DNA from: an uncultured archaeon
GTDB taxonomy: Archaea; Iainarchaeota; Iainarchaeia; Iainarchaeales; CSSED10-239
Length of the DNA: 8,457 nt
NCBI GenBank assembly: GCA_964586355.1
Contig: CAZPGO010000002.1
Coordinates: 1 to 8,457, forward strand
Reading direction: 5' to 3'
Shown here: piece after piece, positions 1 to 8,457 of the stretch
Layout: each line of letters starts with the position of its first letter
Position numbering within the stretch: the first letter of the stretch is position 1
Program-made: the position numbers and the translations under genes
Notes under the pieces: model-generated
Told to the model about the DNA's origin: nothing
Databases searched by the model: none
The model's input: only the letters and a program-made list of their open reading frames with translations

Positions 1-558
1 ATTTGCACTTTTTGTATCTGCTGATAACCCTAGTTCAATAAATTTTATTTGTTTATAGTTTTTTCCATATGCTTCTTTTATAGATCTGTTATTTGCATAT
101 ATTCCAAAGTATGGTGTGAAAGCGTGTGCTGGTCCAATCAAGACCTCGTATTTAACACAGATATCTAATAGTTTGTCTGGTCCAATAGAAAGTCTTGGTC
201 TTCCTCCTCCATATACATTCATATCAGAAGAATATTTTTCTATTTCTTTTTTAAATTTTTCAATAACTTCAAAGTTTTTAAAAAATATTAAATGATGTAC
301 TCTTCCTTTTGTTTCTACTTCTGTTGTTAATAAGAAATATGTTTTTTTTTCTTTATCTTCTTTATAATAATAACAATCATTTTCTTCTTTTAGGTTTTCT
401 TTTACATGAGCTAACCATTTTGGGTGTAATATATCTCCAGTACCAATAAGATCTAGTCCTTTTAATTTTGCTTCTTTTGCTAAAACAGGTATACTCATAT
501 TTTTAGATACTCCTGCTGCGTATGGTGAATGAATATGTAGATCTATATTATATTTCAT
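1..558 (-). CDS. PHP-domain phosphoesterase, endonuclease Q (EndoQ/TIGR00375)-like. N-terminal 186 codons only; the 3' end runs off the window.
   Basis: Hand translation of the minus strand from the ATG at 558-556 gives 186 codons with no stop: MKYNIDLHIHSPYAAGVSKNMSIPVLAKEAKLKGLDLIGTGDILHPKWL...GRVHHLIFF...GGGRPRLSIG...LIGPAHAFTPYFG...ELGLSADT. The blocks DLHIHS, GTGD..HP, HH, GPAH..TP and ELGLSAD match what I recall for PHP-fold EndoQ-type proteins. It is absent from the supplied ORF track because the window edge truncates it. Confidence 0.8.
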   Translation of the reverse strand, partial: MKYNIDLHIHSPYAAGVSKNMSIPVLAKEAKLKGLDLIGTGDILHPKWLAHVKENLKEENDCYYYKEDKEKKTYFLLTTEVETKGRVHHLIFFKNFEVIEKFKKEIEKYSSDMNVYGGGRPRLSIGPDKLLDICVKYEVLIGPAHAFTPYFGIYANNRSIKEAYGKNYKQIKFIELGLSADTKSAN

Positions 559-671
559 ATTTTTTACTCTCTTTATTATTATTTGTGTTTGCCTGTTCTT
601 TTATTTTTTTCTATTTTATTTAATGATTTGTTTTTATTTGTTTTGATTCTATTTTAAATAGATGATTTTTT
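559..671. promoter_or_regulatory. Divergent intergenic region between the PHP gene (-) and the 427-aa gene (+), containing several TATA-like boxes
   Basis: The 113-nt AT-rich spacer lies between two divergently oriented starts. TATA-like strings include ttttatttaat (about 614-624) and attttaaata (651-660). The direct repeat ctatttt occurs at 611-617 and 649-655. Part of this spacer is duplicated at 2294-2364. I cannot assign transcription start sites from sequence alone. Confidence 0.35.
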
Positions 672-1955
672 ATGAAACAAATATATGTTTTTTTATTATT
701 GGGCTTTTTTTTACTTTCTTTTTTTAATTACCTTTCTGCAGAAATGTTTTATGGGGATGGAACTTATGATGTAAAGGCAGGAGATTTTTTAATTGCAGAT
801 AATGGTTGGAAATTGGAAGTTGATGTTTTGCTTTCTGCACACAAGGGTGACGAAATAATTTTTAGTCTTTATGATTCTGAAGGTTTTATTTCTATAGCCA
901 ATGCAAGTAGTTTAAATATTAATGAAGGTTCAAAAAAAATTGGACCCGCACCAAATTTAAAAATAAATTTAGAGTTGTTAGATGTTTTTGGTGAATCAAC
1001 ACCAACAGATTCTCCAATTGCTTTTGTTAGAGAATTTGCAAAAGTTAAAATAACGTCTATAGATGAGGATTTGCCTTCAACTGTAAGTGATAGTTCTGAG
1101 GATGAATTAGAAATAATTAATAAAGATTTAACTTTTAAAAATGCTACCAAATTTAATTTAGCTCTTGGAGAAAAACATATTTTAAAAAATGGTTATAAAT
1201 TGGGTTTAATTGATTTTGATATGCGTTTTAATTCGCCAATGTTCTCTTTATGGAATGAAAATGATGACCTAATTTTAGATTCTTTTTTTATTACAAAAAA
1301 ACCTCAAAATTCTTTTGGAACTTTGGTTTTTTTAGATGATTATGATTCAGACTCTGTTTCTTTAAAAAAAATTGAGGGTTCTCATTTTGTTTTTGGTTCT
1401 GGTTGGAATTTATTTTCTATATTTTTAGATGATGGTTCTGGTTTTGGAACTGTTTTAGAGACCACTTGTAATAATGGTGTTTTGTGGATTTGGAATCCTG
1501 AGTTAGATGATTATGAAAATATTGGTTTTCTGGAAGTTGGTCAAAAAATTCCTTCAAATAAAGGTGTTTGGATTAAAGTAACTGTAGAGAATAATTCAAA
1601 TGCTGATTTTGCCTGTGAGACTATTATATCTGGATCAAAATCTGTTACAACTAAAGGTCAAGAACTAAAAGCCGGTTGGAATTTAATTGGCGCCCCAATA
1701 ACAGCAAATGGAAAAAGTATTGTTACAGTAAATCAAACAACAAGGCAATTATTAAATATCAATGATATTTTAGGAGATTGTAAACTAGAAAAAGGCCCTT
1801 GGCAATTTGTGAGTTCACGATATTCTTCTTTTTTACTTCTAGATAATTTAACAGATCTTGGGGTTTTTTCTAAACCAATAGATAATAATTTAAGATTAAA
1901 CTATGGTTATTTTGTTTTTGTTTCTAAAAATTGTGTGTTAGGTGATGTAAATTGA
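672..1955 (+). CDS. Secreted protein of unknown family with 2+2 internal module duplications
   Basis: The ORF is 427 aa, with ATG at 672 and TGA at 1953-1955. The N-terminus looks like a signal peptide (MKQIYVFLLLGFFLLSFFNYLSA) and there is no other hydrophobic helix. There are two N-terminal modules (NGWKLEVDV..IIFSLYDSEG and NGYKLGLIDFD..MFSLWNENDD). There are two C-terminal modules opening with GSGWNLFSIF and KAGWNLIGAPI and closing with KGVWIKV and YGYFVFV. I cannot name a family with confidence. Confidence 0.8.
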   Translation: MKQIYVFLLLGFFLLSFFNYLSAEMFYGDGTYDVKAGDFLIADNGWKLEVDVLLSAHKGDEIIFSLYDSEGFISIANASSLNINEGSKKIGPAPNLKINLELLDVFGESTPTDSPIAFVREFAKVKITSIDEDLPSTVSDSSEDELEIINKDLTFKNATKFNLALGEKHILKNGYKLGLIDFDMRFNSPMFSLWNENDDLILDSFFITKKPQNSFGTLVFLDDYDSDSVSLKKIEGSHFVFGSGWNLFSIFLDDGSGFGTVLETTCNNGVLWIWNPELDDYENIGFLEVGQKIPSNKGVWIKVTVENNSNADFACETIISGSKSVTTKGQELKAGWNLIGAPITANGKSIVTVNQTTRQLLNINDILGDCKLEKGPWQFVSSRYSSFLLLDNLTDLGVFSKPIDNNLRLNYGYFVFVSKNCVLGDVN

Positions 1956-2173
1956 AAAAAATGTTTTTTATATTTATTATAATTATTTTATTTTTAACTG
2001 TTTCTTTAGTTGTCTATAATTTATTTATATCTAGTGAAGCAGATTCTCAGGATTTTATTAGTAATTCAGATTATAATAATTCAGACATTACAGATAATCA
2101 AAATCAATATGGTTATTCTGTTTTAGAAAATTCAGAAGTAGATTTTGAAAAGCCACCTCGTCCACCAGAATAA
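1952..2173 (+). CDS. Small single-pass membrane protein with an acidic, Asn-rich tail
   Basis: The TTG at 1952 overlaps the upstream TGA (aTTGA). An ATG at 1961 is an equally plausible start. The protein has one N-terminal TM helix (FFIFIIIILFLTVSLVVYNLFI) followed by SEADSQDF..NQNQYGYSVLENSEVDFEKPPRPPE. A near-identical 5'-truncated copy lies at 3221-3412. Confidence 0.6.
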   Translation: MKKMFFIFIIIILFLTVSLVVYNLFISSEADSQDFISNSDYNNSDITDNQNQYGYSVLENSEVDFEKPPRPPE

Positions 2174-2293
2174 AAGTTTGTTTTATTTTAAATTATTCTA
2201 TTTTATAAATTTTGTTAAAATAAATTAATTCCTATTTTTAGATGCGGCTGCTGCGTATGGTGGCTGAATGTGTAGATCTATATTGTATTTCAT
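1982..2293. repeat. Long direct repeat, copy 1 (3' two-thirds of the 73-aa gene, its downstream spacer, and a PHP-gene 5' fragment)
   Basis: Hand alignment to 3221-3538 shows 12 substitutions and one 6-nt indel over about 312 nt, roughly 96 percent identity. Confidence 0.9.
2233..2293 (-). pseudogene. Remnant of the PHP/EndoQ-like gene: first ~20 codons only
   Basis: The segment aligns to 498-558 at a constant offset of 1735. It reads MKYNIDLHIQPPYAAAASKN then RN-stop, compared with MKYNIDLHIHSPYAAGVSKN in the intact gene. Homology to the gene body stops at tatttttagat. Confidence 0.85.
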
Positions 2294-2406
2294 ATTTTTT
2301 ACTCTCTTTATTATTATTTGTGTTTGCCTGTTCTTTTATAATTTTCTATTTTTTTAAATAGATATCTAAATGATATCTTTAAAACAATTGTGGATCTATA
2401 TTATTT
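2294..2406 (+). promoter_or_regulatory. Duplicated promoter block upstream of the toxin-antitoxin pair, with a TATA-like box and a tandem operator-like repeat
   Basis: Positions 2294-2339 are identical to 559-604, and 2346-2364 match 649-663. A TATA-like tttttaaata lies at 2351-2360. It is immediately followed by the tandem repeat AAATAGATATCT (2356-2367) and AAATGATATCT (2368-2378). This places two GATATCT cores 11 nt apart, and tagatatcta (2359-2368) is a 10-bp palindrome. The ATG of the RHH gene is at 2407. Confidence 0.45.
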
Positions 2407-2700
2407 ATGATTAAAAATACATCTAGAGATGAATTTATTATAAGGTTGTCTGGAAAACACAAACAATGTCTTGATGAATTATTAACACAGGGTTATTTTT
2501 CAAATAAGAGTGAAATAATAAGGCATGGAATTTTAGAGGTGAGTAAAAAATATTTGCCAAAAAATGATTCTTCTCAAGAATTGTTATTAGTTGGAAATGC
2601 AATTAAAAGAGAACTAGATCAATTAAATAAATCTGGTGCTGAGTTAATTTCAGAGAAAGATTTTTTAAAAGATTTTCCTCATCTTAAAAAAGTAAAATAG
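2407..2700 (+). CDS. Ribbon-helix-helix (CopG/Arc-like) antitoxin candidate
   Basis: The ORF is 97 aa. The N-terminal segment EFIIRLSGKHKQCLDELLTQGYFSNKSEIIRHGILEV fits the RHH strand-helix-helix pattern, including the SEIIR motif. The C-terminal half is charged and of low complexity. The stop is 2 nt before the toxin start. Confidence 0.65.
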   Translation: MIKNTSRDEFIIRLSGKHKQCLDELLTQGYFSNKSEIIRHGILEVSKKYLPKNDSSQELLLVGNAIKRELDQLNKSGAELISEKDFLKDFPHLKKVK

Positions 2701-2702
2701 GT

Positions 2703-2963
2703 GTGGCGTTGTATCTTATTTTTTTAACTCCTGAATTTAAGAAGGATTTTAGTAAATTGGATAAGCAATTTCAAATACACATTTATAAAAAAATCAAAAA
2801 AATATCTTCTTTGCAAACAAACAAACATTTGAAACACAGTCTCCCATATTTTGTTGAAAAATCTGCGGATGGTTCTAGGTTAGTGTATATTTTAATTGAT
2901 AATAAATTAACCATAATCCGATTTTTTAAAACACATAAAGAATATACTAAATGGTTAAAATGA
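2703..2963 (+). CDS. RelE/ParE-superfamily toxin candidate
   Basis: The ORF is 86 aa with a GTG start at 2703. The layout fits small RelE/ParE-like toxins: YLIFLTPEFKKDFSKLDKQFQIHIYKKIKKI....HLKHSL....EKSADGSRLVYILIDNKLTIIRFFKTHKEY. That is an N-terminal strand, a helix with an FKKD..KLDK motif, a central RLVY strand, and a C-terminal basic/aromatic HKEY. It is paired with the upstream RHH gene. Confidence 0.55.
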   Translation: MALYLIFLTPEFKKDFSKLDKQFQIHIYKKIKKISSLQTNKHLKHSLPYFVEKSADGSRLVYILIDNKLTIIRFFKTHKEYTKWLK

Positions 2964-3049
2964 ATGCTTTTAAATATTTTAAAAAACAAAAAAATAAGTT
3001 GTGCTGCTTGTAATGGATATTGTGTAATTAAAAAAAACTAAACTGGTTT
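2964..3049 (+). pseudogene. 5' remnant of the radical SAM gene
   Basis: The ATG at 2964 abuts the toxin TGA (tgaATG). Positions 3000-3049 align to 6031-6080 with 4 mismatches. The remnant keeps the CxxCxxxC frame (SCAACNGYCVIKKN) and then hits a TAA at 3039-3041 where the intact gene has CAA (Gln). Homology ends at 3049 and is fused to sequence matching 8216 onward. Confidence 0.8.
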
Positions 3050-3050
3050 C

Positions 3051-3227
3051 AAAAAACTTAAGGATTAACATTGTTCTAAGCCCTGCAATTCCAAATATTG
3101 CTGATACTACTATTGTTGCCCAAATTGGTGGTTTAATAACTAATAAACAATTACATACTAAAAACCCAACAACTCTAATAATACTATTTAGCAAAATATT
3201 TTTTAAAAAAAAAGATTGTAATTATTG
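3051..3227 (-). pseudogene. N-terminally truncated copy of the BofA-like membrane protein gene (supplied ORF 2979-3194)
   Basis: The segment aligns to 8217-8392 with 14 substitutions and an A9/A8 indel, about 92 percent identity. It encodes ..LKNILLNSIIRVVGFLVCNCLLVIKPPIWATIVVSAIFGIAGLRTMLILKFF. The native stop is lost, so the frame reads on through the radical SAM remnant. There is no ATG and the upstream TM helix of the native gene is missing. Confidence 0.7.
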
Positions 3228-3412
3228 TATTTTTAACTGTTTCTTTAGTTATCTATAATTTATTTATATCTAGTGAAGCAGATTCTCAGTGTTTTATTAG
3301 TAATTCAGATTATAATAATTCAGACATTACAGATAATCAAAATCAATATGGTGATTCAGTTTTAGAAAATTCAGAAGTAGATTTTGAAAAGCCACCTCGC
3401 CCACCAGAATAA
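3221..3412 (+). pseudogene. 5'-truncated copy of the 73-aa membrane protein gene
   Basis: The frame is preserved to the same KPPRPPE-TAA end (stop at 3410-3412). The frame opens only after a TAA at 3179-3181, with no ATG, GTG or TTG start before the homologous region. There are 7 nt differences from 1982-2173, giving V>I, D>C and Y>D changes. Confidence 0.7.
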
Positions 3413-3477
3413 AAGTTTGTTTTATTTTAAATTAAAATAATTCTATTTTATAAATTTTGTTAAAATAAATTAATTCC

Positions 3478-3538
3478 TATTTTTAGATACGGCTGCTGCG
3501 TATGGTGACTGAATGTGTAGATCTATGTGGTATTTTAT
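3478..3538 (-). pseudogene. Second remnant of the PHP/EndoQ-like gene 5' end, with the start codon lost
   Basis: The segment aligns to 498-558 (offset 2980) and to 2233-2293 (offset 1245). The position of the start codon reads tat (ATA) instead of cat (ATG) at 3536-3538. It shares the ggctgctgcg and ctgaatgtg variants with the 2233 copy rather than with the intact gene. Confidence 0.8.
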
Positions 3539-3690
3539 AAATAGTTATTTGATAAATATTTATTTAAGTTGTCATAAGCAAAACAACCTCTTTTTAAATA
3601 TATCTATCTAATTAAGAAAACATTATGCTTTATATAGATTTTACAACATAACTTATTTATATTAGTCTTATTGTTTTTTTTTTGCTCGGT

Positions 3691-3718
3691 AATATTTTAA
3701 ATTTAGAGGTGTGTTATA
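3691..3718 (+). promoter_or_regulatory. TATA-like box and Shine-Dalgarno-like site upstream of the 753-aa gene
   Basis: The string aatattttaaat lies at 3691-3702. GAGGTG lies at 3706-3711, 7 nt before the ATG at 3719, and is complementary to the usual 16S 3' end. Confidence 0.45.
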
Positions 3719-5980
3719 ATGAATTTAAAAATTATTTTTAAAAGTTTTAATTTGCTATTAATCTTTATTTTTTTATTTTCAACGGTTTTTGCTGAGATTA
3801 ATGTTGTTGACTTTAGTAGTGATGCTAAGGAGCCTGGTTTTTTGGGTATTGGTGATTCTATTTCTTTTTATATTAAATTAAATGAACCCATAGAAAACTT
3901 AGAAATTAGTCCAAAAGAATATAATTCTAAATTAATAGAATGGAAATCAAATAAAGATCATTCAGTTTATTCTGCAAAATATGTTGTAGAAGAAGGAGAT
4001 CCTTCTCATAAAGATCCTTTGCAATTAGGTGTTTTAGTTTTAAGATCGGCTGATGATGAATTAAAATTAGAATCAAAAAAAATTGTTTTTAAGTCAATAG
4101 ATTCTATAAGACCAAAAATTATTGATGTTATTTTTTCAAATATATCTTATTTAAATAAAGAAAATTATCCTCTTACTTTTTTGCTTGATAGAAAAGAGGT
4201 TGATGGTATTTTAACGTATTCTTTTTTCTCGAAAAATCAAGACATTACAAGAACTATTGAATTAAATGAGCTTTATTCTCGTGTAGAGGGCGTTATTGAT
4301 TTACAAAAAGAGGTTCCTTTAACAATATATGAAAATCTTTCTTTTTTTGAAGATGGTCTTGTTTTTTTAAAATTAAAAATAACTGATCATGCAAATAATT
4401 CTGTTTATTTTGAAGCAGACATTATTAAAGACGATATTTTACCTGAAATAGTAAAAATTGATGCTGATTTTATTACAAATACTAATTTTGAATCTTATTC
4501 TTTAGATTTAAAAATAAACAAACCATGTAAATTAGCAAAATTTATTTTTGCCGACACTCAAAACACTTTAAGTTTTGAAAGAAATTTTGATGAGGTTAAA
4601 AATCTAGATCATTCTTTTTCTGATTTTGATCTCTCTAAATTAAAGGATGGTGTTGTTACTTTAAATGTTGTTTTATTTGATTTGTCAAATAACGAAAGTA
4701 AACTTTATGAATTTGATTTATATAAAGACACTGTGATTCCAAAATTAAATTTAGATCAAGAAAATTTAATTTTACATAATAAAAAAGAAATTACTTTTAC
4801 TGGTTTAGTTATTGACAATTTGCATGAAAATATAAAAGTTAATTATTCTAAAACTCATGAGTCTGGTGATGTTCAAGATCTTGATGTTTTATATGATTGT
4901 TCTGTATTTTATAGTCCATGTTGTTCAGGTAACGGCTATAATTATGTTACTTGTGAAATTGATGGTTTAGTTGAAGGAAATAATAAAATATTAATTAGGG
5001 CTATTGATAGAGTAGGTAATGAAGACAAAAAAGAAATTAGTCTGTCTATTAGTACAGAACCTGTTGATTTAAAATTTCATTATGGAAATAGGTTTGTTGT
5101 AAATACCGCTCCTTCTGTGATAAAGGGAGATGCGATTTTAAATCCAATTGCTAATGTTAAAACTTTTGTTGCTGTTTTAAGGCTTGTGGATTCAACACAA
5201 CCTCTTAAATATAATAAATATGCTCCAATAATAGATGGTGATAATTTTCTTATTGATTTAGAAAAACCAATTAGTGGTAGTAATCTTTTTTTGCCTTTAG
5301 TAGAGGGTGAGTATCTTTTAACTATTTTTTTAAAAGATGATTATGGTAATTCTATTTCTAAAGCACAAGTCATTATAATTGATAGTACAGCACCACAATT
5401 AGAAATAAATAATCTGTCTACAAGTAATAGACAACCAACAATTACTGGTAAGGTTGTTGATAAAACAAAAACAGATGTTTTGATAACTATTAATTCAAAC
5501 GACTATGTTGCTACTGTTGTTGATGGTTCATGGAGTGCACAAATTACAAATACTTTGCCTCTTGGTATTCAAAATGTAAAAGTTGTTGCAAAGGATGAGG
5601 CAAATAACCGATCCGAAATTGAAAGCACGGTGTCTATTAATTCTACTGGTGGTGGTTCTAGATTTACTGCTTTGCCAGCACAAGAAGCACTTCCAGAGCA
5701 AGAGCAAGAAACTGTTTCAGAGAGTGTTGTTGATGAAACTCCAGTGATTTTAGATGATTCGCCGAATAATTTGCCAGCTCCTTCTCAAAGCAATACATTA
5801 CAAGAACCGATTGAAAATCTAGAATTTATTGAAGATCAAGTTGAACAACCACAAACAACAGGTGGACTAACTGGTTTTGTTGGTTTTGCTAATAAACCAC
5901 AAGGCATTGTAACAATAGTTCTTAGTATTTTTTCTGTTGTTGGTGTTTTGGGCTATTTGTTTGTTTTTAAGAAAAGATAA
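3719..5980 (+). CDS. Large cell-surface protein with tandem bacterial-Ig-like modules and a C-terminal membrane anchor
   Basis: The ORF is 753 aa with a signal-peptide-like N-terminus (FNLLLIFIFLFSTVFA). There are at least five module ends with the D-x-x-(G/A/S)-N motif followed by a D..x.P boundary: ITDHANNS..KDDILPEI, LFDLSNNES..KDTVIPKL, AIDRVGNED, LKDDYGNS..IDSTAPQL and AKDEANNRS. The module TITGKVVDKTKTDVLITINSNDYVATVVDGSWSAQI is classic for Ig-like adhesin repeats. There is a Cys cluster (CSVFYSPCCSGNGYNYVTC). The protein ends with an acidic Pro/Gln/Glu linker, a TM helix and a KKR tail (GIVTIVLSIFSVVGVLGYLFVFKKR). Confidence 0.85.
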   Translation: MNLKIIFKSFNLLLIFIFLFSTVFAEINVVDFSSDAKEPGFLGIGDSISFYIKLNEPIENLEISPKEYNSKLIEWKSNKDHSVYSAKYVVEEGDPSHKDPLQLGVLVLRSADDELKLESKKIVFKSIDSIRPKIIDVIFSNISYLNKENYPLTFLLDRKEVDGILTYSFFSKNQDITRTIELNELYSRVEGVIDLQKEVPLTIYENLSFFEDGLVFLKLKITDHANNSVYFEADIIKDDILPEIVKIDADFITNTNFESYSLDLKINKPCKLAKFIFADTQNTLSFERNFDEVKNLDHSFSDFDLSKLKDGVVTLNVVLFDLSNNESKLYEFDLYKDTVIPKLNLDQENLILHNKKEITFTGLVIDNLHENIKVNYSKTHESGDVQDLDVLYDCSVFYSPCCSGNGYNYVTCEIDGLVEGNNKILIRAIDRVGNEDKKEISLSISTEPVDLKFHYGNRFVVNTAPSVIKGDAILNPIANVKTFVAVLRLVDSTQPLKYNKYAPIIDGDNFLIDLEKPISGSNLFLPLVEGEYLLTIFLKDDYGNSISKAQVIIIDSTAPQLEINNLSTSNRQPTITGKVVDKTKTDVLITINSNDYVATVVDGSWSAQITNTLPLGIQNVKVVAKDEANNRSEIESTVSINSTGGGSRFTALPAQEALPEQEQETVSESVVDETPVILDDSPNNLPAPSQSNTLQEPIENLEFIEDQVEQPQTTGGLTGFVGFANKPQGIVTIVLSIFSVVGVLGYLFVFKKR

Positions 5981-5985
5981 TTTTT

Positions 5986-6849
5986 ATGTCTTTTACTTTT
6001 TTTTCTATTTTGGGTGTTGCTGAAATTAAATGTACTGCTTGTAATAGATATTGTGTAATTAAAGAAAACCAAACTGGTTTTTGTAAGGTTAGAAAAAACA
6101 TTAATGGTTCGTTAGTTTCTTTAGTTGATAACAAGCCCATTGCTATTGCCATAGATCCAATTGAAAAGAAACCACTTTATCATTTTTTACCTAAAACAAA
6201 AACTCTTTCTTTTGGTACTGTTGGTTGTAATTTTGATTGTGCTTTTTGTCAAAATTTTTCAATATCTAATCCAAAAGAATTCAATTTGGATTTGTTACCT
6301 ATGGTGTCTGAACAGCAGATTATTGATCTCGCACTAAAAAATAATTTGCCCTCTATTTCTTACACCTATAATGAGCCAACAGTTTTTTCTGAGTTTGCAC
6401 TAAGGGTTATGAAGTTAGCTAAGAAAAATAATCTAAAAAATATCTGGGTAAGTAACGGATACATGTCTAAAGAGGTTTTAAAAGAGCTAACCAAGTATCT
6501 TGATGCTATTAACATAGATCTAAAAGGTGATCAAGCTTTTTATGATAACTTGATTCCTGGCATTAATGTTGATATAATTAAAGAGAACATAAAATATTTG
6601 CATAAAAAAGGTGTCCACGTAGAAATAACTAATCTATTACTTGAAGGTTATAATACTAAGAAAGAACAGATTCAGGAAATAATTGATTTTGTTTCTTCTA
6701 TATCTTCTGATATTCCTCTTCATTTTTCTAGATCTTTTCCTTGTTATAGATTAAAGGATATTACTCCTACAAAAATAGAGTCTCTTAAACTAGCAAAAGA
6801 TCTTGCAATTTCTAGTAGATTAAAGAATATTTATTTAGGAAACATTTGA
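5986..6849 (+). CDS. Radical SAM enzyme, AmmeMemoRadiSam-system / PflA-activase-like
   Basis: The ORF is 287 aa. It has an N-terminal auxiliary Cys motif (CTACNRYCVIKENQTGFCKVRKN), then DPIEKKPLYHF, then the CX3CX2C core (GCNFDCAFCQN). The C-terminal end is KNIYLGNI. This order of blocks is what I recall for TIGR04337-type enzymes. The start is 5 nt after the stop of the 753-aa gene. Confidence 0.8.
   Translation: MSFTFFSILGVAEIKCTACNRYCVIKENQTGFCKVRKNINGSLVSLVDNKPIAIAIDPIEKKPLYHFLPKTKTLSFGTVGCNFDCAFCQNFSISNPKEFNLDLLPMVSEQQIIDLALKNNLPSISYTYNEPTVFSEFALRVMKLAKKNNLKNIWVSNGYMSKEVLKELTKYLDAINIDLKGDQAFYDNLIPGINVDIIKENIKYLHKKGVHVEITNLLLEGYNTKKEQIQEIIDFVSSISSDIPLHFSRSFPCYRLKDITPTKIESLKLAKDLAISSRLKNIYLGNI
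6783..6849 (+). repeat. Direct repeat, left copy (the functional 3' end of the radical SAM gene)
   Basis: Positions 6791-6849 match 8141-8199 at a constant offset of 1350 with 4 mismatches. Two of those convert TGA to TAG. The match extends about 7 nt further left with a 1-nt indel. Confidence 0.9.
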
Positions 6850-6853
6850 TTTT

Positions 6854-8044
6854 TTATTCGCAGATTTTTTTAAGATTGGTAGGATCGTAAATTGTAATAT
6901 CTTCTATTTTTTGTTTGTTATTTTTTTCTTTTACAAATAAAAATTTTGTTTTTGCATCAATATTTAGATTTTCTTTAACAGTAGTTATTTTTACTGCATC
7001 TATTTTTTTCCATTTGATAGATCCAACAATTTCTATTTTTTTAAATTTTTTTAAAACCACATCAATTTCTTGATCTGGTTTATTATAGATTACTTTTGTC
7101 AAACCTTTTTTTTCTATTAATAAATCAGAAATAAAATCTTCTATATAAAAGGACACTTTATTTTGCCAGGCTTCTATTATTTCTTTTTCACTTACATTCT
7201 CGCCATATTTTGTATTTAAGTAAAAGAAAAAATCTATTGGTGTTGATTTTATTTTATATTTGTATCTTTTTTGATTATATATTTGTGTTTTTTCTAAAAC
7301 CCCTATATTTACTAATGTATTAATATATGCTGATATTGCTCCAGGCGTTTCTTTTGAAATTATTTTTTGGTTATATAAATTTGTAGTAATTTCTCCAATA
7401 GTTTGATGTCCTGTAGATACATTTCTAATAATGGCGTCATATGTTTCTGTTAATATTTTATCTTCATCTTCAAAGATCTCTCCAAATAATGCCACTGACC
7501 AATATTTTGCAAATTTATAGTATTTTAATAAAAAATCAGTAAACTTTTCTTTTTGATCATATAGTTCTATCAATGTTGGCTCTCTAAAAAATATTGCTTG
7601 TTCCATAAAATTGTTTTTATTTTTTAAATTAGTAATTATTTCACAAGGGGTTATTAATCTAAATTCTATGGGATAAACTAATCCTAAAATAGGGGATTTA
7701 CTTGCTAATATTTTTTTTGCAATATGTAAAGAGGATGTTATTATAATTAAATTATTTAGTCTTTGACTATGTAAAAAATCAGTAAAATCATCTCCTAGTC
7801 TATGAAATTCATCAACCACTATAACTTTGTCTTTGTTTTCTAATATATATCTTTTTAGTTCTTCATATTGCCAATTTTCATTAGTTTCTACGTTTTTTAT
7901 TGACTTGTCTCTATATATGAAAAAAAACTTATTATATTTTATAAAGTTTTGAACATAAAATGATTTTCCTGTTTTTCGTCTACCATAAACTAGTTTTATT
8001 TTATTTGTTTTAAATTCTTTTAAATAGTTTCTAGTTATAATCAT
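6854..8044 (-). CDS. AAA-type ATPase of the archaeal ATPase (Arch_ATPase) family with wHTH and a DUF234-like C-terminal domain
   Basis: The ORF is 396 aa. Walker A is VYGRRKTGKS (residues 19-28) and Walker B is VIVVDEFH (residues 74-81). A wHTH-like segment reads TIGEITTNL...ISAYINTLVNIGVLEK. The C-terminal QEIDVV...IVGSIKWKK resembles the DUF234 signature. The gene converges on the radical SAM gene with only 4 nt between the two stops. Confidence 0.8.
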   Translation of the reverse strand: MIITRNYLKEFKTNKIKLVYGRRKTGKSFYVQNFIKYNKFFFIYRDKSIKNVETNENWQYEELKRYILENKDKVIVVDEFHRLGDDFTDFLHSQRLNNLIIITSSLHIAKKILASKSPILGLVYPIEFRLITPCEIITNLKNKNNFMEQAIFFREPTLIELYDQKEKFTDFLLKYYKFAKYWSVALFGEIFEDEDKILTETYDAIIRNVSTGHQTIGEITTNLYNQKIISKETPGAISAYINTLVNIGVLEKTQIYNQKRYKYKIKSTPIDFFFYLNTKYGENVSEKEIIEAWQNKVSFYIEDFISDLLIEKKGLTKVIYNKPDQEIDVVLKKFKKIEIVGSIKWKKIDAVKITTVKENLNIDAKTKFLFVKEKNNKQKIEDITIYDPTNLKKICE

Positions 8045-8080
8045 AATTATAATAATTGTGATTATATTTAAAAATAGATC
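8045..8080 (-). promoter_or_regulatory. TATA-like box for the ATPase gene
   Basis: The minus strand reads ctatttttaaatataatcacaattattataattATG. The TTTAAATA core corresponds to plus-strand positions about 8063-8070, roughly 23 nt from the ATG. This spacing would fit an archaeal leaderless or short-leader transcript. Confidence 0.4.
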
Positions 8081-8133
8081 TATTTCTATTAAGCCCTATA
8101 TTTACCCTGTGCATATTTATAAAATTGTACCGA

Positions 8134-8199
8134 TCTTAACTAGCAAAAGATCTTGCAATTTCTAGTGGATTAAAGAATGTTTATTTAGGAAACATTTAG
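8134..8199 (+). repeat. Direct repeat, right copy (orphan 3' end of the radical SAM gene)
   Basis: It would encode LAKDLAISSGLKNVYLGNI-TAG in the original frame, compared with LAKDLAISSRLKNIYLGNI-TGA in the intact gene. No upstream coding sequence is attached to it. Confidence 0.9.
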
Positions 8200-8204
8200 A
8201 AAAA

Positions 8205-8457
8205 TTAAAAAATCCCAAAAAACTTAAGGATTAACATTGTTCCAAGCCCTGCAATTCCAAATATTGCTGATACAATTATTGTTGCCCAAATAGGTAGTTT
8301 AATGCCTAGTAAAAAATTACATACTAAAAACCCAACAACTCCAACAATACTATTTAGTAAAATATTTTTTAAAAAAAAGATTATGATTATTGCTAAAATA
8401 ATAAAAATAACTCCAAATATTAAAACCTTAGGGTTATTGATAAGACCAGTAGCAGTA
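8205..8457 (-). CDS. Small multi-pass membrane protein, BofA-like (pro-sigmaK processing inhibitor family fold). C-terminal 83 codons only; the 5' end lies beyond the window.
   Basis: Hand translation of the minus strand gives TATGLINNPKVLIFGVIFIILAIIIIFFLKNILLNSIVGVVGFLVCNFLLGIKLPIWATIIVSAIFGIAGLGTMLILKFFGIF, with the stop at 8207-8205. The pattern N-S-I-x-G-x-x-G......I..N/P.W....V.A..G.PG resembles BofA-family proteins as I recall them. It is not in the ORF track because of edge truncation. Confidence 0.6.
   Translation of the reverse strand, partial: TATGLINNPKVLIFGVIFIILAIIIIFFLKNILLNSIVGVVGFLVCNFLLGIKLPIWATIIVSAIFGIAGLGTMLILKFFGIF

Follow-up and report, generated by a model that had tools for sequence, protein, structure and literature searches.

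A single ATPase gene bracketed by a duplicated radical SAM gene end in an uncultured archaeon, and its possible addition by recombination

How did the 3′ end of a radical SAM (rSAM) gene come to stand on both sides of a single ATPase gene? We analysed a window of 8,457 nt from an uncultured archaeon (contig CAZPGO010000002.1, positions 1 to 8,457), in which a sequence-only reading had noticed the repeated gene end and compared it with the att sites of integrating elements. The features around the repeat are as follows.

5986..6849, + strand: AmmeMemoRadiSam-system radical SAM gene, 287 aa, the intact target (ORF call; TIGR04337)
6783..6848, + strand: repeat copy 1, the functional rSAM 3′ end (last 22 codons), with derived residues R and I (self-comparison)
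6850..6853, no strand: TTTT spacer between the rSAM stop and the convergent ATPase stop, the left cassette junction (read from the sequence)
6854..8044, − strand: AAA+ ATPase gene, 396 aa, the cargo (ORF call; Pfam AAA_14; Foldseek)
8045..8095, − strand: conserved block, putative promoter, kept 5′ of homologues
8096..8133, no strand: spacer that separates the conserved block from repeat copy 2 (comparison with loci and window)
8134..8198, + strand: repeat copy 2, the presumed displaced, orphan rSAM 3′ end, with ancestral-like residues G and V (self-comparison)
8205..8457, − strand: 3′ part of a small membrane protein gene, 105 aa, which runs off the window (full gene in L007)

Structure of the duplicated gene end

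The direct repeat was confirmed by blastn comparison of the window with itself, in which 6783-6847 aligned with 8134-8197 over 65 columns at 95.4% identity, with 2 mismatches, 1 gap and E = 9e-24. Its ungapped core pairs 6788-6848 with 8138-8198 (61 nt), and over this core the previously given offset of 1350 holds. The count of four mismatches is reached only if two stop-codon bases (TGA vs TAG) are included; otherwise there are two, A/G at 6817/8167 and A/G at 6829/8179. As described before, the orphan copy keeps the reading frame and a stop codon, with 19 sense codons (8140-8196) followed by TAG (8197-8199). It has no start codon, and an in-frame TAA lies immediately 5′ of it at 8137-8139. 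The two copies differ at two amino acids, G vs R and V vs I (orphan vs intact), and the orphan's G and V were present in 10 of 10 relatives compared (..GLK.VY/F.GN.), in line with the earlier impression that the orphan residues are nearer to the family C-terminus. By its sequence, the orphan copy is a dead fragment of ancestral-like character.

The rSAM end copies of one genome are much closer to each other (92-97% identical in the window, 91-93% in the sister lineage L065) than the orthologous ends are between these lineages (73-79%). The spacer at 8096-8133 had no significant similarity to the rSAM gene upstream of the repeat, to the fetched loci or to the remaining window. The repeat is real and reproducible: the segment 6780-8210 showed 100% identity across five contigs that were assembled independently, each from a different sample (JGI 3300077563, 3300077564, 3300077522 and 3300001335; Logan SRR2986055), which settles the earlier concern that the second copy might be an assembly artefact.

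The rSAM protein scored 241.3 bits against NCBIfam TIGR04337 (cut-off 220), which places it in the AmmeMemoRadiSam family, and it also matched Pfam Radical_SAM and Fer4_12. An identical rSAM protein is encoded on 10 contigs, and the ATPase gene comes next on all of them. On the far side, the stop codon of the membrane-protein gene (8205-8207) lies 5 nt beyond the orphan's stop; judging from the gene order, this gene was in all probability the former convergent neighbour of the rSAM gene. Its product had no Pfam or NCBIfam family match, so the label BofA-like given to it before was not upheld.

The ATPase gene and its upstream region

As the sequence-only reading had stated, the sole ORF between the repeat copies is the minus-strand ATPase gene (6854-8044), accompanied by 89 nt upstream of it. 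The stop-TTTT-stop arrangement at the left junction is also present in L065. The ATPase matched Pfam AAA_14 (PF13173) with 31.4 bits (cut-off 27) over residues 14-108, and its homologues carry PF13173 annotation. Its former description as Arch_ATPase/DUF234-like was not confirmed, AAA_14 being the only Pfam assignment; PF01637, PF03008 and PF13635 were absent from the window ATPase even at E <= 10, as were PF01637 and PF03008 from two of its homologues. A Resolvase match in the ORF search (E = 0.22, 12 bits) was discarded as noise.

The invariant columns of the ATPase comprise Walker A GRRKTGK, DEFHR, D328 and K344-W345. The C-terminal motif is D...(S/E)xKW, and this subfamily has Ser where the putative (D/E)xK triad would have its acidic residue (SIKW). 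Foldseek matches of the AlphaFold2 model (pLDDT 92.3) suggest an Orc1/Cdc6- or STAND-like fold. Only 14 clusters, at 51% identity or above, make up this small subfamily, and neither a PADLOC match nor further functional annotation was obtained for the ATPase.

The block at 8045-8095 includes a TATA-like sequence, TTTTTAAATATAAT (8061-8074), and, immediately 5′ of the ATG, the palindromic element ATAAT-N4-ATTAT; it is kept upstream of homologues in L014, L016, L073, L075, L076, L078 and L083. By the standard of archaeal promoter architecture, it may act as a promoter. A palindrome of 20 nt, TTATAAT-N4-ATTATAATA, lies at the 5′ end of the ATPase cassette. The added gene measures ~1.24 kb and consists of the putative TATA-type promoter and the ATPase ORF.

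Copies and homologues of the cassette in other contexts

A copy of promoter and ORF, 88% identical, adjoins dnaJ in L014/L015. Its homology to the window stops exactly at 6849 and at about 8092, and no bracketing repeat was detectable around it in L015. In L073, a 63%-identical ATPase homologue lies between direct repeats of at least 185 nt (91% identical), which are duplicated 3′ ends of a diphthamide synthase gene, and the orientation of the cassette relative to its target gene is opposite to that in the window. These two occurrences bear out the cassette-like mobility that had been suspected, and sequence comparison supports the view that the ATPase gene and its promoter form a movable single-gene unit.

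In L065, the orphan rSAM end measures at least 105 nt, and the ATPase gene is truncated through a deletion at an 11-nt microhomology; over its last 240 nt it is 88% identical to that of the window at the nucleotide level, a divergence like that seen in the flanking genes. The repeats that bracket homologous cassettes are not related to each other in sequence and measure 61-66, at least 105 and at least 185 nt. Gene-end duplications occur in 2 of ~8 distinct contexts of the ATPase subfamily, a hint that the cargo could be more than a passive passenger. Next to a 2-oxoacid oxidoreductase operon, four homologues occupy the same syntenic position. Orphan palindromes follow immediately on the stop codon in L075, L076, L078 and L083; another lies upstream in L016, and one between the orphan rSAM end and the neighbour gene in L065. 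A neighbouring distant paralogue in L020 carries AAA_14 and DUF4143.

The rSAM junction in relatives and other repeats in the window

In L019 and L040-42, the rSAM and membrane-protein genes stand tail to tail with overlapping convergent stop codons and no insert. An arrangement that by its sequence resembles the empty site is found in these more distant relatives; at the species level, neither an empty site nor a donor sequence was found, so that the previously proposed search for an empty site succeeded in part.

Other relatives have different genes at this junction. L043 carries a GNAT gene and a 55-aa gene there, with a clean 17-nt duplication in comparison with L019 (flanks 93-96% identical). 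An RHH/ParE-like gene pair is present in L020, L046, L050 and L035, and L039 has another convergent ORF, its homology to L065 ending exactly at the rSAM stop codon. Comparison of L020 with L046 revealed a 755-nt insert between 256-nt repeats; in L020, the inserted ORF uses the duplicated 256 nt as its C-terminal anchor region.

The window itself is rich in repeats of 86-97% identity, including the following.

495..623, + strand: 129-nt direct repeat, copy 1, 91.5% identical (self-comparison; L044)
2230..2357, + strand: 129-nt direct repeat, copy 2, its right side contiguous with a toxin-antitoxin pair, as in L044
1976..2294 and 3215-3539, + strand: 325-nt direct repeat, 94% identical (self-comparison)
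2992..3227, + strand: ghost of an rSAM/membrane-protein locus (self-comparison)

The 129-nt pair encloses a 427-aa and a 73-aa gene, and its first copy (495..623) spans the 5′ end of a minus-strand PHP/MJ0043-family gene together with the sequence upstream of that gene. In L044, the segment occurs as a single copy joined straight to the toxin-antitoxin pair. The 325-nt pair encloses the toxin-antitoxin pair together with ghost fragments. The ghost consists of an rSAM 5′ fragment (3000-3049, 92% identical to 6031-6080) fused to a membrane-protein fragment (3050-3227, 92% identical to 8216-8392). Target duplications of 17, 129 and 256 nt surround other cargo in the window and its relatives, indicating that the phenomenon is not specific to the ATPase.

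Search for a mobility apparatus

No integrase, transposase or recombinase families were present among the called genes within ±10 kb, and no tRNA was found. Terminal inverted repeats were absent, with 24% of shuffles scoring at least as high as the cassette ends, in agreement with what had been read from the sequence before. No attC-like hairpin was detected; DNA folding of the repeat copies gave z = +0.87 and −0.95 relative to shuffles. Searches among viral contigs, phages and plasmids yielded no relatives.

We rejected a DNA transposon, IS or MITE because there are no inverted termini and the duplication has no fixed length (61-66 nt here, 17-256 nt elsewhere). We also rejected an integron gene cassette, given neither an attC-like fold nor a nearby IntI. 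As in an integrative element, direct repeats flank the insert, the target 3′ end is restored and the rSAM gene is intact. However, an integrative element with a common att core and fixed orientation does not agree with the unrelated repeat and opposite orientation in L073 and the absence of a repeat in L015. Of the footprint recognised by the sequence-only reading, the complete functional 3′ end with the old end displaced is supported, whereas its att-like, site-specific interpretation is not, for want of a recombinase, tRNA, inverted termini and attC fold, and because the repeats of homologous cassettes are unrelated.

Proposed origin of the repeat

The repeats of 61-66 nt are best read as a target duplication that arose when the ATPase gene was added at the rSAM/membrane-protein junction. 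We see about an even chance that this was an additive insertion with displacement of the 3′ end, brought about at an insertion hot spot by recombination of a homology-anchored or an illegitimate kind. We infer the recombination route, the donor and the order of events as follows. The join would have fallen within the final ~22 rSAM codons, and the rSAM gene would have remained functional because a complete 3′ end sits on that side of the insert where the ATPase gene stops. The original rSAM 3′ end would have been shifted 1,350 nt downstream and left as a dead fragment beside its old neighbour. No site-specific integrase would take part, the gene end being displaced by recombination. Incoming DNA from a close relative could have entered by homology-anchored illegitimate recombination, held by homology within the rSAM gene at one end and joined illegitimately at the opposite one; alternatively, a circularised fragment bearing the rSAM end and the ATPase could have been integrated by a Campbell-type single crossover. 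The process may have recurred with other cargo, both at the rSAM locus and in related archaea, and selection would keep only those products that restore the ends of both tightly packed neighbours. The repeats would also let homologous recombination excise the cassette as a 1,350-bp circle.

An intact gene, then cargo, then a start-less orphan 3′ fragment, as expected from displacement, is the order seen in the window and likewise in L065 and L073. The ghosts at 2992-3227, the 129-nt and 325-nt repeats and the varied cargo in relatives point to a hot spot. The orphan carries the consensus G and V, as might be expected if the displaced end were the resident one and the functional end the incoming one, with only two differences to judge by.

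Alternative explanations

The repeat copies in each genome are each other's closest relatives, which would also follow from a true target-site duplication, made by staggered breaks or replication template switching with neither a homologous anchor nor a foreign gene end. Here, linear DNA would be ligated or copied into nicks 17-256 nt apart, and fill-in would double the resident sequence. The wide variation in repeat length (17, 61-66, at least 105, 129, at least 185 and 256 nt) agrees with this, and the clean 17 nt of L043 vs L019 are below ordinary homologous recombination and short for the RadA type, so that a staggered-break model fits them better. On the other hand, had the copies started out identical, neutral decay would be expected in the orphan, yet both substitutions in the window lie in the functional copy, and the 256 nt of L020, which anchor the C-terminus of the inserted ORF, fit homology-led entry better. 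In addition, we know of no enzyme that makes staggers so long and variable. We regard a target-site duplication of this kind as rather unlikely.

The second alternative, to which we give a clearly lower probability, is site-specific integration, in which the repeats would be attL and attR and a tyrosine or serine recombinase would have been lost with a larger element or act in trans. The repeats do double a gene 3′ end, the displaced end is ancestral-like, and the rSAM stop codon is the exact breakpoint for several different cargoes. Moreover, the left junction is identical in two lineages despite the likeness of the copies within each genome, which implies either gene conversion between the repeats or independent, precise insertions; the latter, if true, would favour a more specific mechanism. 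Nevertheless, no recombinase gene is present in the cassette or within ±10 kb, nothing related was found among viral or plasmid records, and homologous cassettes have unrelated repeats, other lengths and the opposite orientation, the dnaJ-linked copy having no repeat at all. The 61-nt near-identical repeat also stops abruptly at a non-homologous spacer, with no sign of a short core.

Could the cassette instead mobilise itself, the winged-helix and nuclease-like C-terminal domain of the ATPase driving insertion or homing through the 20-nt palindrome? Members of one small subfamily lie within gene-end duplications at two unrelated genes, the limits of the unit are tight around promoter and ORF, orphan promoter palindromes occur at three kinds of position, and the ATPase conserves D328 and K344 in the manner of a PD-(D/E)xK motif; the related families DUF234 and DUF4143 have been catalogued as PD-(D/E)XK nucleases (PMC3424549). 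Against this, the acidic residue of (D/E)xK is replaced by Ser (SIKW), the four homologues at one oxidoreductase-operon position suggest vertical inheritance, other cargo has repeat-bounded insertions without the ATPase, the palindrome is more simply read as an operator or insulator, and there is no PADLOC match or other functional annotation. We hold self-mobilisation to be doubtful, a shade more so than site-specific integration. Equally speculative is the wider proposal that this subfamily is a mobile gene of DPANN-type archaea that moves autonomously, without an integrase, and targets housekeeping 3′ ends with the palindrome as its site. If it were true, the gene would insert beside or into rSAM, diphthamide synthase, dnaJ and the oxidoreductase operon, the target end would be restored as a long direct repeat, and the palindrome would be a recognition or recombination site with orphan copies at gene ends.

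It is very improbable that no foreign insertion took place, with the ATPase ancestral in its position and the orphan a remnant of a decayed local rSAM duplication. This would suit the divergence of the ATPase between the window and L065, which is in the range of the flanking genes, and the longer orphan of L065 means that a much longer second copy could once have existed. However, the overlapping rSAM and membrane-protein stops of distant relatives leave no room for a gene, the same cassette stands next to dnaJ in a third sister lineage, and duplication alone would still need an event placing the ATPase between the copies. Finally, a collapsed or chimeric assembly of strain variants can for practical purposes be dismissed: the abundant 86-97% identical repeats can confuse assemblers, but both copies and their mismatches are the same in the five assemblies from JGI and Logan pipelines, and L065 has the same architecture.

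Comparison with known systems

The cargo resembles AAA_14/DUF4143 (COG1373) and Arch_ATPase/DUF234 proteins in its N-terminal Walker-type ATPase, its helical or winged-helix middle, its C-terminal beta-rich domain with D...xKW and its patchy distribution; the DUF234 motif, EID...ECKW, is similar to the D...xKW of the ATPase. It differs from them in belonging to a small subfamily, in the Ser within (D/E)xK and in the absence of PF13635, PF01637 and PF03008 from the window ATPase.

Integron cassettes are single-gene units, often toxin-antitoxin pairs, that are collected at one site with repeats of 60-150 nt between them, and archaeal integrons were reportedly described in 2022. The locus studied here likewise has single-gene units, separated by repeats, that accumulate at one site. 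Unlike in integrons, its repeats are fragments of neighbouring genes and not attC sites, no IntI gene is present, and the cassette has its own putative promoter and the opposite orientation.

In integrase-dependent islands, integrated viruses and plasmids, and cis-mobilisable elements, the repeats also double the 3′ end of the target, with the displaced copy at the far end. In contrast to these, there is no recombinase here and just 1.3 kb of cargo. Homologous cassettes differ in repeat, length and orientation, one copy lacking a repeat, and other cargo at the rSAM junction has a different duplication (17 nt).

Campbell-type single crossover, known as 'pop-in/pop-out' in archaeal genetics, yields a homology segment, cargo and the homology segment again. 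Repeats formed in this way may be of any length and sequence, and recombination between the two can remove the insert. The segment-cargo-segment structure of the window is exactly of this form.

For Rhs, CDI and T6SS effector-immunity loci, it has been proposed that 3′ (C-terminal) ends are displaced by homology-facilitated illegitimate recombination (PMC5361080, Kirchberger 2017, and Jackson 2009 and de Vries & Wackernagel 2002 as cited in it). Whereas a polymorphic toxin gene is hit in Rhs/CDI/T6SS systems and the cargo is a toxin tip with its immunity gene, an archaeal housekeeping enzyme gene is hit here, the cargo is a convergent ATPase gene predicted to be independently transcribed, and the new 3′ end is nearly the same as the old one, so that no function is swapped. 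In both cases, the intact gene keeps a complete 3′ end, the cargo comes next and the start-less old end lies downstream. Both also share the absence of an integrase, recurrent events at one hot spot that leave ghosts, and repeat lengths that are set by the positions of the joins.

Duplication of the radical SAM gene end

The 3′ end of the radical SAM (rSAM) gene is present twice in the window, as a direct repeat (6783-6848 versus 8134-8198) that brackets a minus-strand ATPase gene. When the window was compared with itself by blastn, the two copies aligned over 65 columns (95.4% identity, 2 mismatches, 1 gap, E = 9e-24). The gap-free core (6788-6848 versus 8138-8198) comprises 61 nt at an offset of 1350, with A/G differences between the copies at 6817/8167 and 6829/8179. 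The features concerned are as follows.

Features of the duplicated region
5986-6849, plus strand: rSAM gene, 287 aa; its last 22 codons are repeat copy 1
Between the copies, in order: 4 nt (TTTT); a 396-aa ORF on the minus strand, 6854-8044; 89 nt on the 5′ side of this ORF
8134-8198: orphan repeat copy 2, comprising 19 sense codons and a TAG stop; it lacks a start codon, and an in-frame TAA (8137-8139) directly precedes these codons
8205-8207: stop codon of a convergent 105-aa membrane-protein gene, five nt past the orphan stop

The rSAM protein scored 241 bits against the AmmeMemoRadiSam radical SAM enzyme profile TIGR04337 (NCBIfam; cut-off 220), and the orphan copy is, as judged from its codons, a dead fragment. 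The C-terminus of rSAM reads ..GLK.VY/F.GN. in 10 of the 10 relatives examined. At the two sites where the copies differ, the orphan has G and V, as the relatives do, and the functional copy has R and I, suggesting, on two sites only, that the displaced fragment retains the ancestral state. The sequence-only reading had noticed the flanking duplication and suspected that the orphan was the displaced original end; the former was confirmed and the latter gains support. That reading had also considered that the second copy might be an assembly artefact. Identical ATPase and rSAM proteins were encoded, in constant arrangement, on contigs from at least five samples in independent JGI and Logan assemblies, and positions 6780-8210 in the five longest contigs were 100% identical to the window, including both mismatches between the copies, which argues against an artefact. 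Samples with this locus include JGI 3300077563, 3300077564, 3300077522 and 3300001335 as well as SRR2986055. No extension of the orphan past 8134 was detected, as the spacer 8085-8137 aligned with the region upstream of rSAM no better than shuffles did (fraction of shuffles scoring at least as high: 0.64 for the window rSAM and 0.05-0.15 for the sister-lineage rSAM), and this spacer had no match in any fetched locus.

The ATPase cassette at other loci

A protein search for relatives of the ATPase recovered 14 clusters with identities of 51% or higher, which make up a small subfamily; most related contigs were short. Loci fetched from other contigs carry L-numbers below. In L014/L015, a copy with 91% amino acid and 88% nucleotide identity has a convergent dnaJ gene as its neighbour on the downstream side, and homology to the window is limited to 6849-8092, that is, from 5 nt past the ATPase stop codon to ~48 nt 5′ of the ATG, with unrelated flanks beyond. 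Across the final 240 nt of the ATPase gene, the window, L065 and L014 were mutually equidistant (87-89%), indicating three sister lineages, in one of which the promoter-plus-ORF unit lies elsewhere. The proposal of a single-gene cassette is thus supported by this second locus. The dnaJ-linked copy showed no flanking repeat, as the local alignment score was below the shuffle mean when 150 nt of upstream flank was compared.

In L073, a homologue with 63% amino acid identity is bracketed by a 185-nt direct repeat (2-185 versus 1617-1801, 91% identity), each copy of which corresponds to the C-terminal portion of Pfam Diphthamide_syn. A stop codon terminates the upstream copy; the downstream orphan has lost its own. 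The ATPase gene is co-directional with its target gene in L073 and convergent with it in the window. Copies of the cargo in other contexts, for which the sequence-only reading had proposed a search, therefore occur both beside dnaJ and at a diphthamide synthase gene end, and the cargo recurs with an equivalent footprint at the latter, a second target gene unrelated to rSAM.

The homologues in L075, L076, L078 and L083 (79-95% mutual identity) are syntenic beside 2-oxoacid oxidoreductase genes, and their placement looks like vertical inheritance. No relative of the cassette was found on viruses or plasmids in IMG/VR or INPHARED, and PLSDB gave one weak Fusobacterium match. Note that the ATPase of L075 seems frameshifted (308-aa and 40-aa ORFs). 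The adjoining gene for the TPP-binding subunit of the oxidoreductase (L075 1282-3315) carries an intein (Pfam Intein_splicing and LAGLIDADG_3), and its orthologues in L076 and L083 carry none.

Varied insertions at the junction of the rSAM and membrane-protein genes

An empty site was found in L019 and L040-42 (rSAM 67% identical at the amino acid level), in which the rSAM and membrane-protein genes are convergent and their stop codons overlap. At the species level no empty site was found: every contig encoding an identical rSAM or ATPase protein carries the insertion, and the short contigs L011-L013 likewise run on into the ATPase side. The expected empty site thus exists in more distant relatives, and none was found among the closest ones. 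No donor sequence was found.

The same junction differs among relatives. L043, whose flanks are 93-96% identical to those of L019, has gained 785 nt at exactly this junction. The insert, which probably encodes a toxin-antitoxin pair, consists of a 55-aa gene and a 176-aa GNAT acetyltransferase gene and is bracketed by a 17-nt target duplication, ATATTTAAATAATCT.. (L043 4816-4832 and 5618-5634; L019 counterpart 4816-4832); no obvious terminal inverted repeats were seen in this module. An RHH/ParE-like gene pair occupies the junction in L020, L046, L050 and L035. L044 and L065 belong to one sister lineage (98.6% identical in their overlap, about 80-88% nucleotide identity to the window) with the order PHP-family gene, toxin-antitoxin pair, rSAM, the same stop-TTTT-stop junction as in the window, ATPase remnant, orphan and membrane-protein gene. 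The remnant in L065 comprises only the last 79 codons of the ATPase gene, and its orphan rSAM end is at least 105 nt long. At L065 505-530 the ATPase gene is joined to the orphan by a deletion at an 11-nt microhomology, TTATA(A/G)ATTAC; this truncation illustrates microhomology-mediated deletion in these genomes. In L039, a strain 97% identical to L044, another convergent ORF follows rSAM, and homology to L065 stops exactly at the rSAM stop codon. These differing contents indicate that the junction is an insertion hot spot for varied cargo.

Repeat-bounded segments elsewhere in the window and in relatives

Repeats in the window outside the ATPase region
495-623 versus 2230-2357: 129-nt repeat, 91.5% identity, bracketing the 427-aa and 73-aa genes
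1976-2294 versus 3215-3539: 325-nt direct repeat, 94% identity with a 6-nt indel, bracketing a toxin-antitoxin pair and a ghost
3000-3049 and 3050-3227: the ghost, an rSAM 5′ fragment fused to a membrane-protein gene fragment
2230-3227: PHP-family gene 5′ fragment; intact ParD/ParE-like pair (2407-2963); rSAM 5′ fragment of 50-58 nt; membrane-protein fragment of 178 nt

The 129-nt segment is single in the sister-lineage locus L044, where it is joined directly to the toxin-antitoxin pair. The 325-nt repeat spans most of the 73-aa ORF and the PHP-gene 5′ fragment; a large tandem duplication between two haplotypes and an insertion with a long duplication are candidates for its origin. The segment 2230-3227 is the entire ancestral locus in a second, degenerate copy. 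Since its gene order is that of L044/L065, the window reads like three tandem-joined alleles of one variable locus. The left half of the window can be written as segments A, B, C, A′, D, E′, F′, C′, A″, G, a layout that could have arisen through several alternative orders of events.

Two large predicted surface proteins fill the variable region between the PHP-family gene and rSAM, an interval that in relatives holds nothing, a toxin-antitoxin pair or a homologue of the 753-aa protein.

Predicted surface proteins
3719-5980: 753 aa; Ig-like domains Big_13 and Glucodextran_B, and a hydrophobic anchor at the C-terminus
672-1955: 427 aa, with no family match

Against window 2775-6912, the strain variant L011 (JGI 3300001533) shows a 7-nt indel that breaks the 753-aa gene into ORFs of 87 and 653 aa; the population is thus polymorphic for a frameshift here.

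L020 and L046, which belong to another genus, are 98-99% identical apart from a 755-nt insertion in L020. Flanking the insert is a duplicated 256-nt stretch of the 3′ end of a large surface-protein gene upstream, its two copies 98% identical (L020 2690-2945 and 3701-3956; L046 counterpart 1614-1869). The inserted ORF encodes a signal peptide and two Ig-like repeats and runs in frame into the duplicated C-terminal anchor region, giving a new surface-protein gene. When the fetched non-redundant loci (about 323 kb) were taken together, repeats of this type clustered at these variable junctions.

The ATPase and its promoter palindrome

The sequence-only reading had labelled the protein Arch_ATPase/DUF234-like. 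Pfam matched AAA_14 alone (31.4 bits, cut-off 27), and Arch_ATPase, DUF234 and DUF4143 gave no match even at E ≤ 10, so the label was dropped. The protein also had no NCBIfam name and no PADLOC (defence) match. GRRKTGK (Walker A), DEFHR and the C-terminal D328 ... K344-W345 are invariant in an alignment of 42 homologues. A confident AlphaFold2 model (pLDDT 92.3) gave, as best PDB matches of the whole protein in Foldseek, only Orc1/Cdc6 and STAND NTPases at low TM-scores, and no nuclease fold was assigned to the C-terminal domain. In architecture the protein resembles ATPases of the DUF234 and DUF4143 families, which have C-terminal domains listed as PD-(D/E)XK nucleases in a published catalogue (PMC3424549); the subfamily described here, however, has Ser in place of the acidic residue of the putative (D/E)xK. 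We infer that the protein is a DNA-binding ATPase. Beyond that catalogue entry, nothing on AAA_14/DUF4143 mobility was found in the literature.

Upstream of every ATPase homologue lies a conserved block with a TATA-like box and, between this box and the ATG, a 20-nt palindrome, TTATAAT-N4-ATTATAATA.

Positions of the palindrome
Window: 8048-8067 (promoter)
L075: 1247-1266
L076: 1923-1942
L078: 3209-3228
L083: 4169-4188
L016: 7027-7046
L065: 642-661

The pattern was matched 67 times, compared with 15 expected from shuffles. In four loci an orphan palindrome immediately follows the ATPase stop codon, and the one in L078 has a strong hairpin fold (z = -4.6). Further orphans lie 127 nt upstream of the real promoter in L016 and, in L065, in the interval from the orphan rSAM end to the membrane-protein gene. 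The palindrome may act as an operator, an insulator or a recombination site, or it may be a relic of deleted cassettes.

Discussion

An additive, integrase-free insertion that displaced the 3′ end of the neighbouring gene fits the arrangement in the window. DNA from a close relative would enter by homology-anchored illegitimate recombination, or a circularised fragment bearing the gene end and cargo would integrate by a single crossover. Where gene ends abut or overlap, the survivors would be only those products that regenerate both ends, which would account for breakpoints lying exactly at stop codons. Pop-out mediated by the repeat would leave a chromosomal junction of rSAM ...AATAGAGTCTCTTAAACTAGC, one repeat copy and AAAAATTAAAAAATCCC, and the matching circle would join 8133 via one repeat copy to 6850. 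Within one genome the repeat copies share 92-97% identity (window) or 91-93% identity (L065), compared with only 73-79% for orthologous rSAM ends across the two lineages, and yet these lineages have the stop-TTTT-stop left junction in common. This combination points either to gene conversion that has kept the copies similar since one old insertion or to recurrent insertions with a precise junction.

The strongest rival to additive insertion is duplication of the gene end by a staggered break or template switch. Repeat-bounded insertion is not specific to the ATPase. The ATPase itself may play a role in insertion, as its subfamily recurs with the gene-end-duplication footprint at two unrelated genes and a conserved palindrome marks the 5′ end of the cassette, with orphan copies at gene ends; together these suggest that the cargo is possibly not passive. 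If the cassette were self-mobilising, TTATAATGGTGATTATAATA would be a candidate ATPase-binding sequence; an autonomous ATPase-nuclease cassette using the palindrome as its site is, in our view, quite improbable. Under a site-specific att/integrase model one would expect a recombinase, a shared core and a fixed orientation. None of the three was found, and the att-like interpretation of the sequence-only reading is not supported: no recombinase lies within ±10 kb, the bracketing repeats (61-66, at least 105 and at least 185 nt) are unrelated in sequence across loci, the cassette of L073 is oriented opposite to that of the window, and the dnaJ-linked copy is repeat-free. Searches for tRNA genes, Rfam families, terminal inverted repeats and attC-like or other secondary structure in the repeat were all negative. 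Duplication of a gene's 3′ end as direct repeats is, on its own, insufficient evidence for an integrase or att element.

If additive insertion is the right reading, very compact archaeal genomes, with tail-to-tail genes and overlapping stop codons, gain single genes without recognisable mobile-element machinery, by recombination that duplicates and displaces a neighbour's gene end. The before/after pairs (L019 to L043, L046 to L020, and L044 to the window) and the decay stages of one insertion (window versus L065) would then make rates and junction rules measurable in metagenomes. For Rhs C-termini and T6SS effector-immunity arrays, displacement of 3′ ends has likewise been suggested, with homology-facilitated illegitimate recombination named explicitly (PMC5361080); the displacement described here differs in that it occurs at housekeeping genes of a compact archaeal genome.
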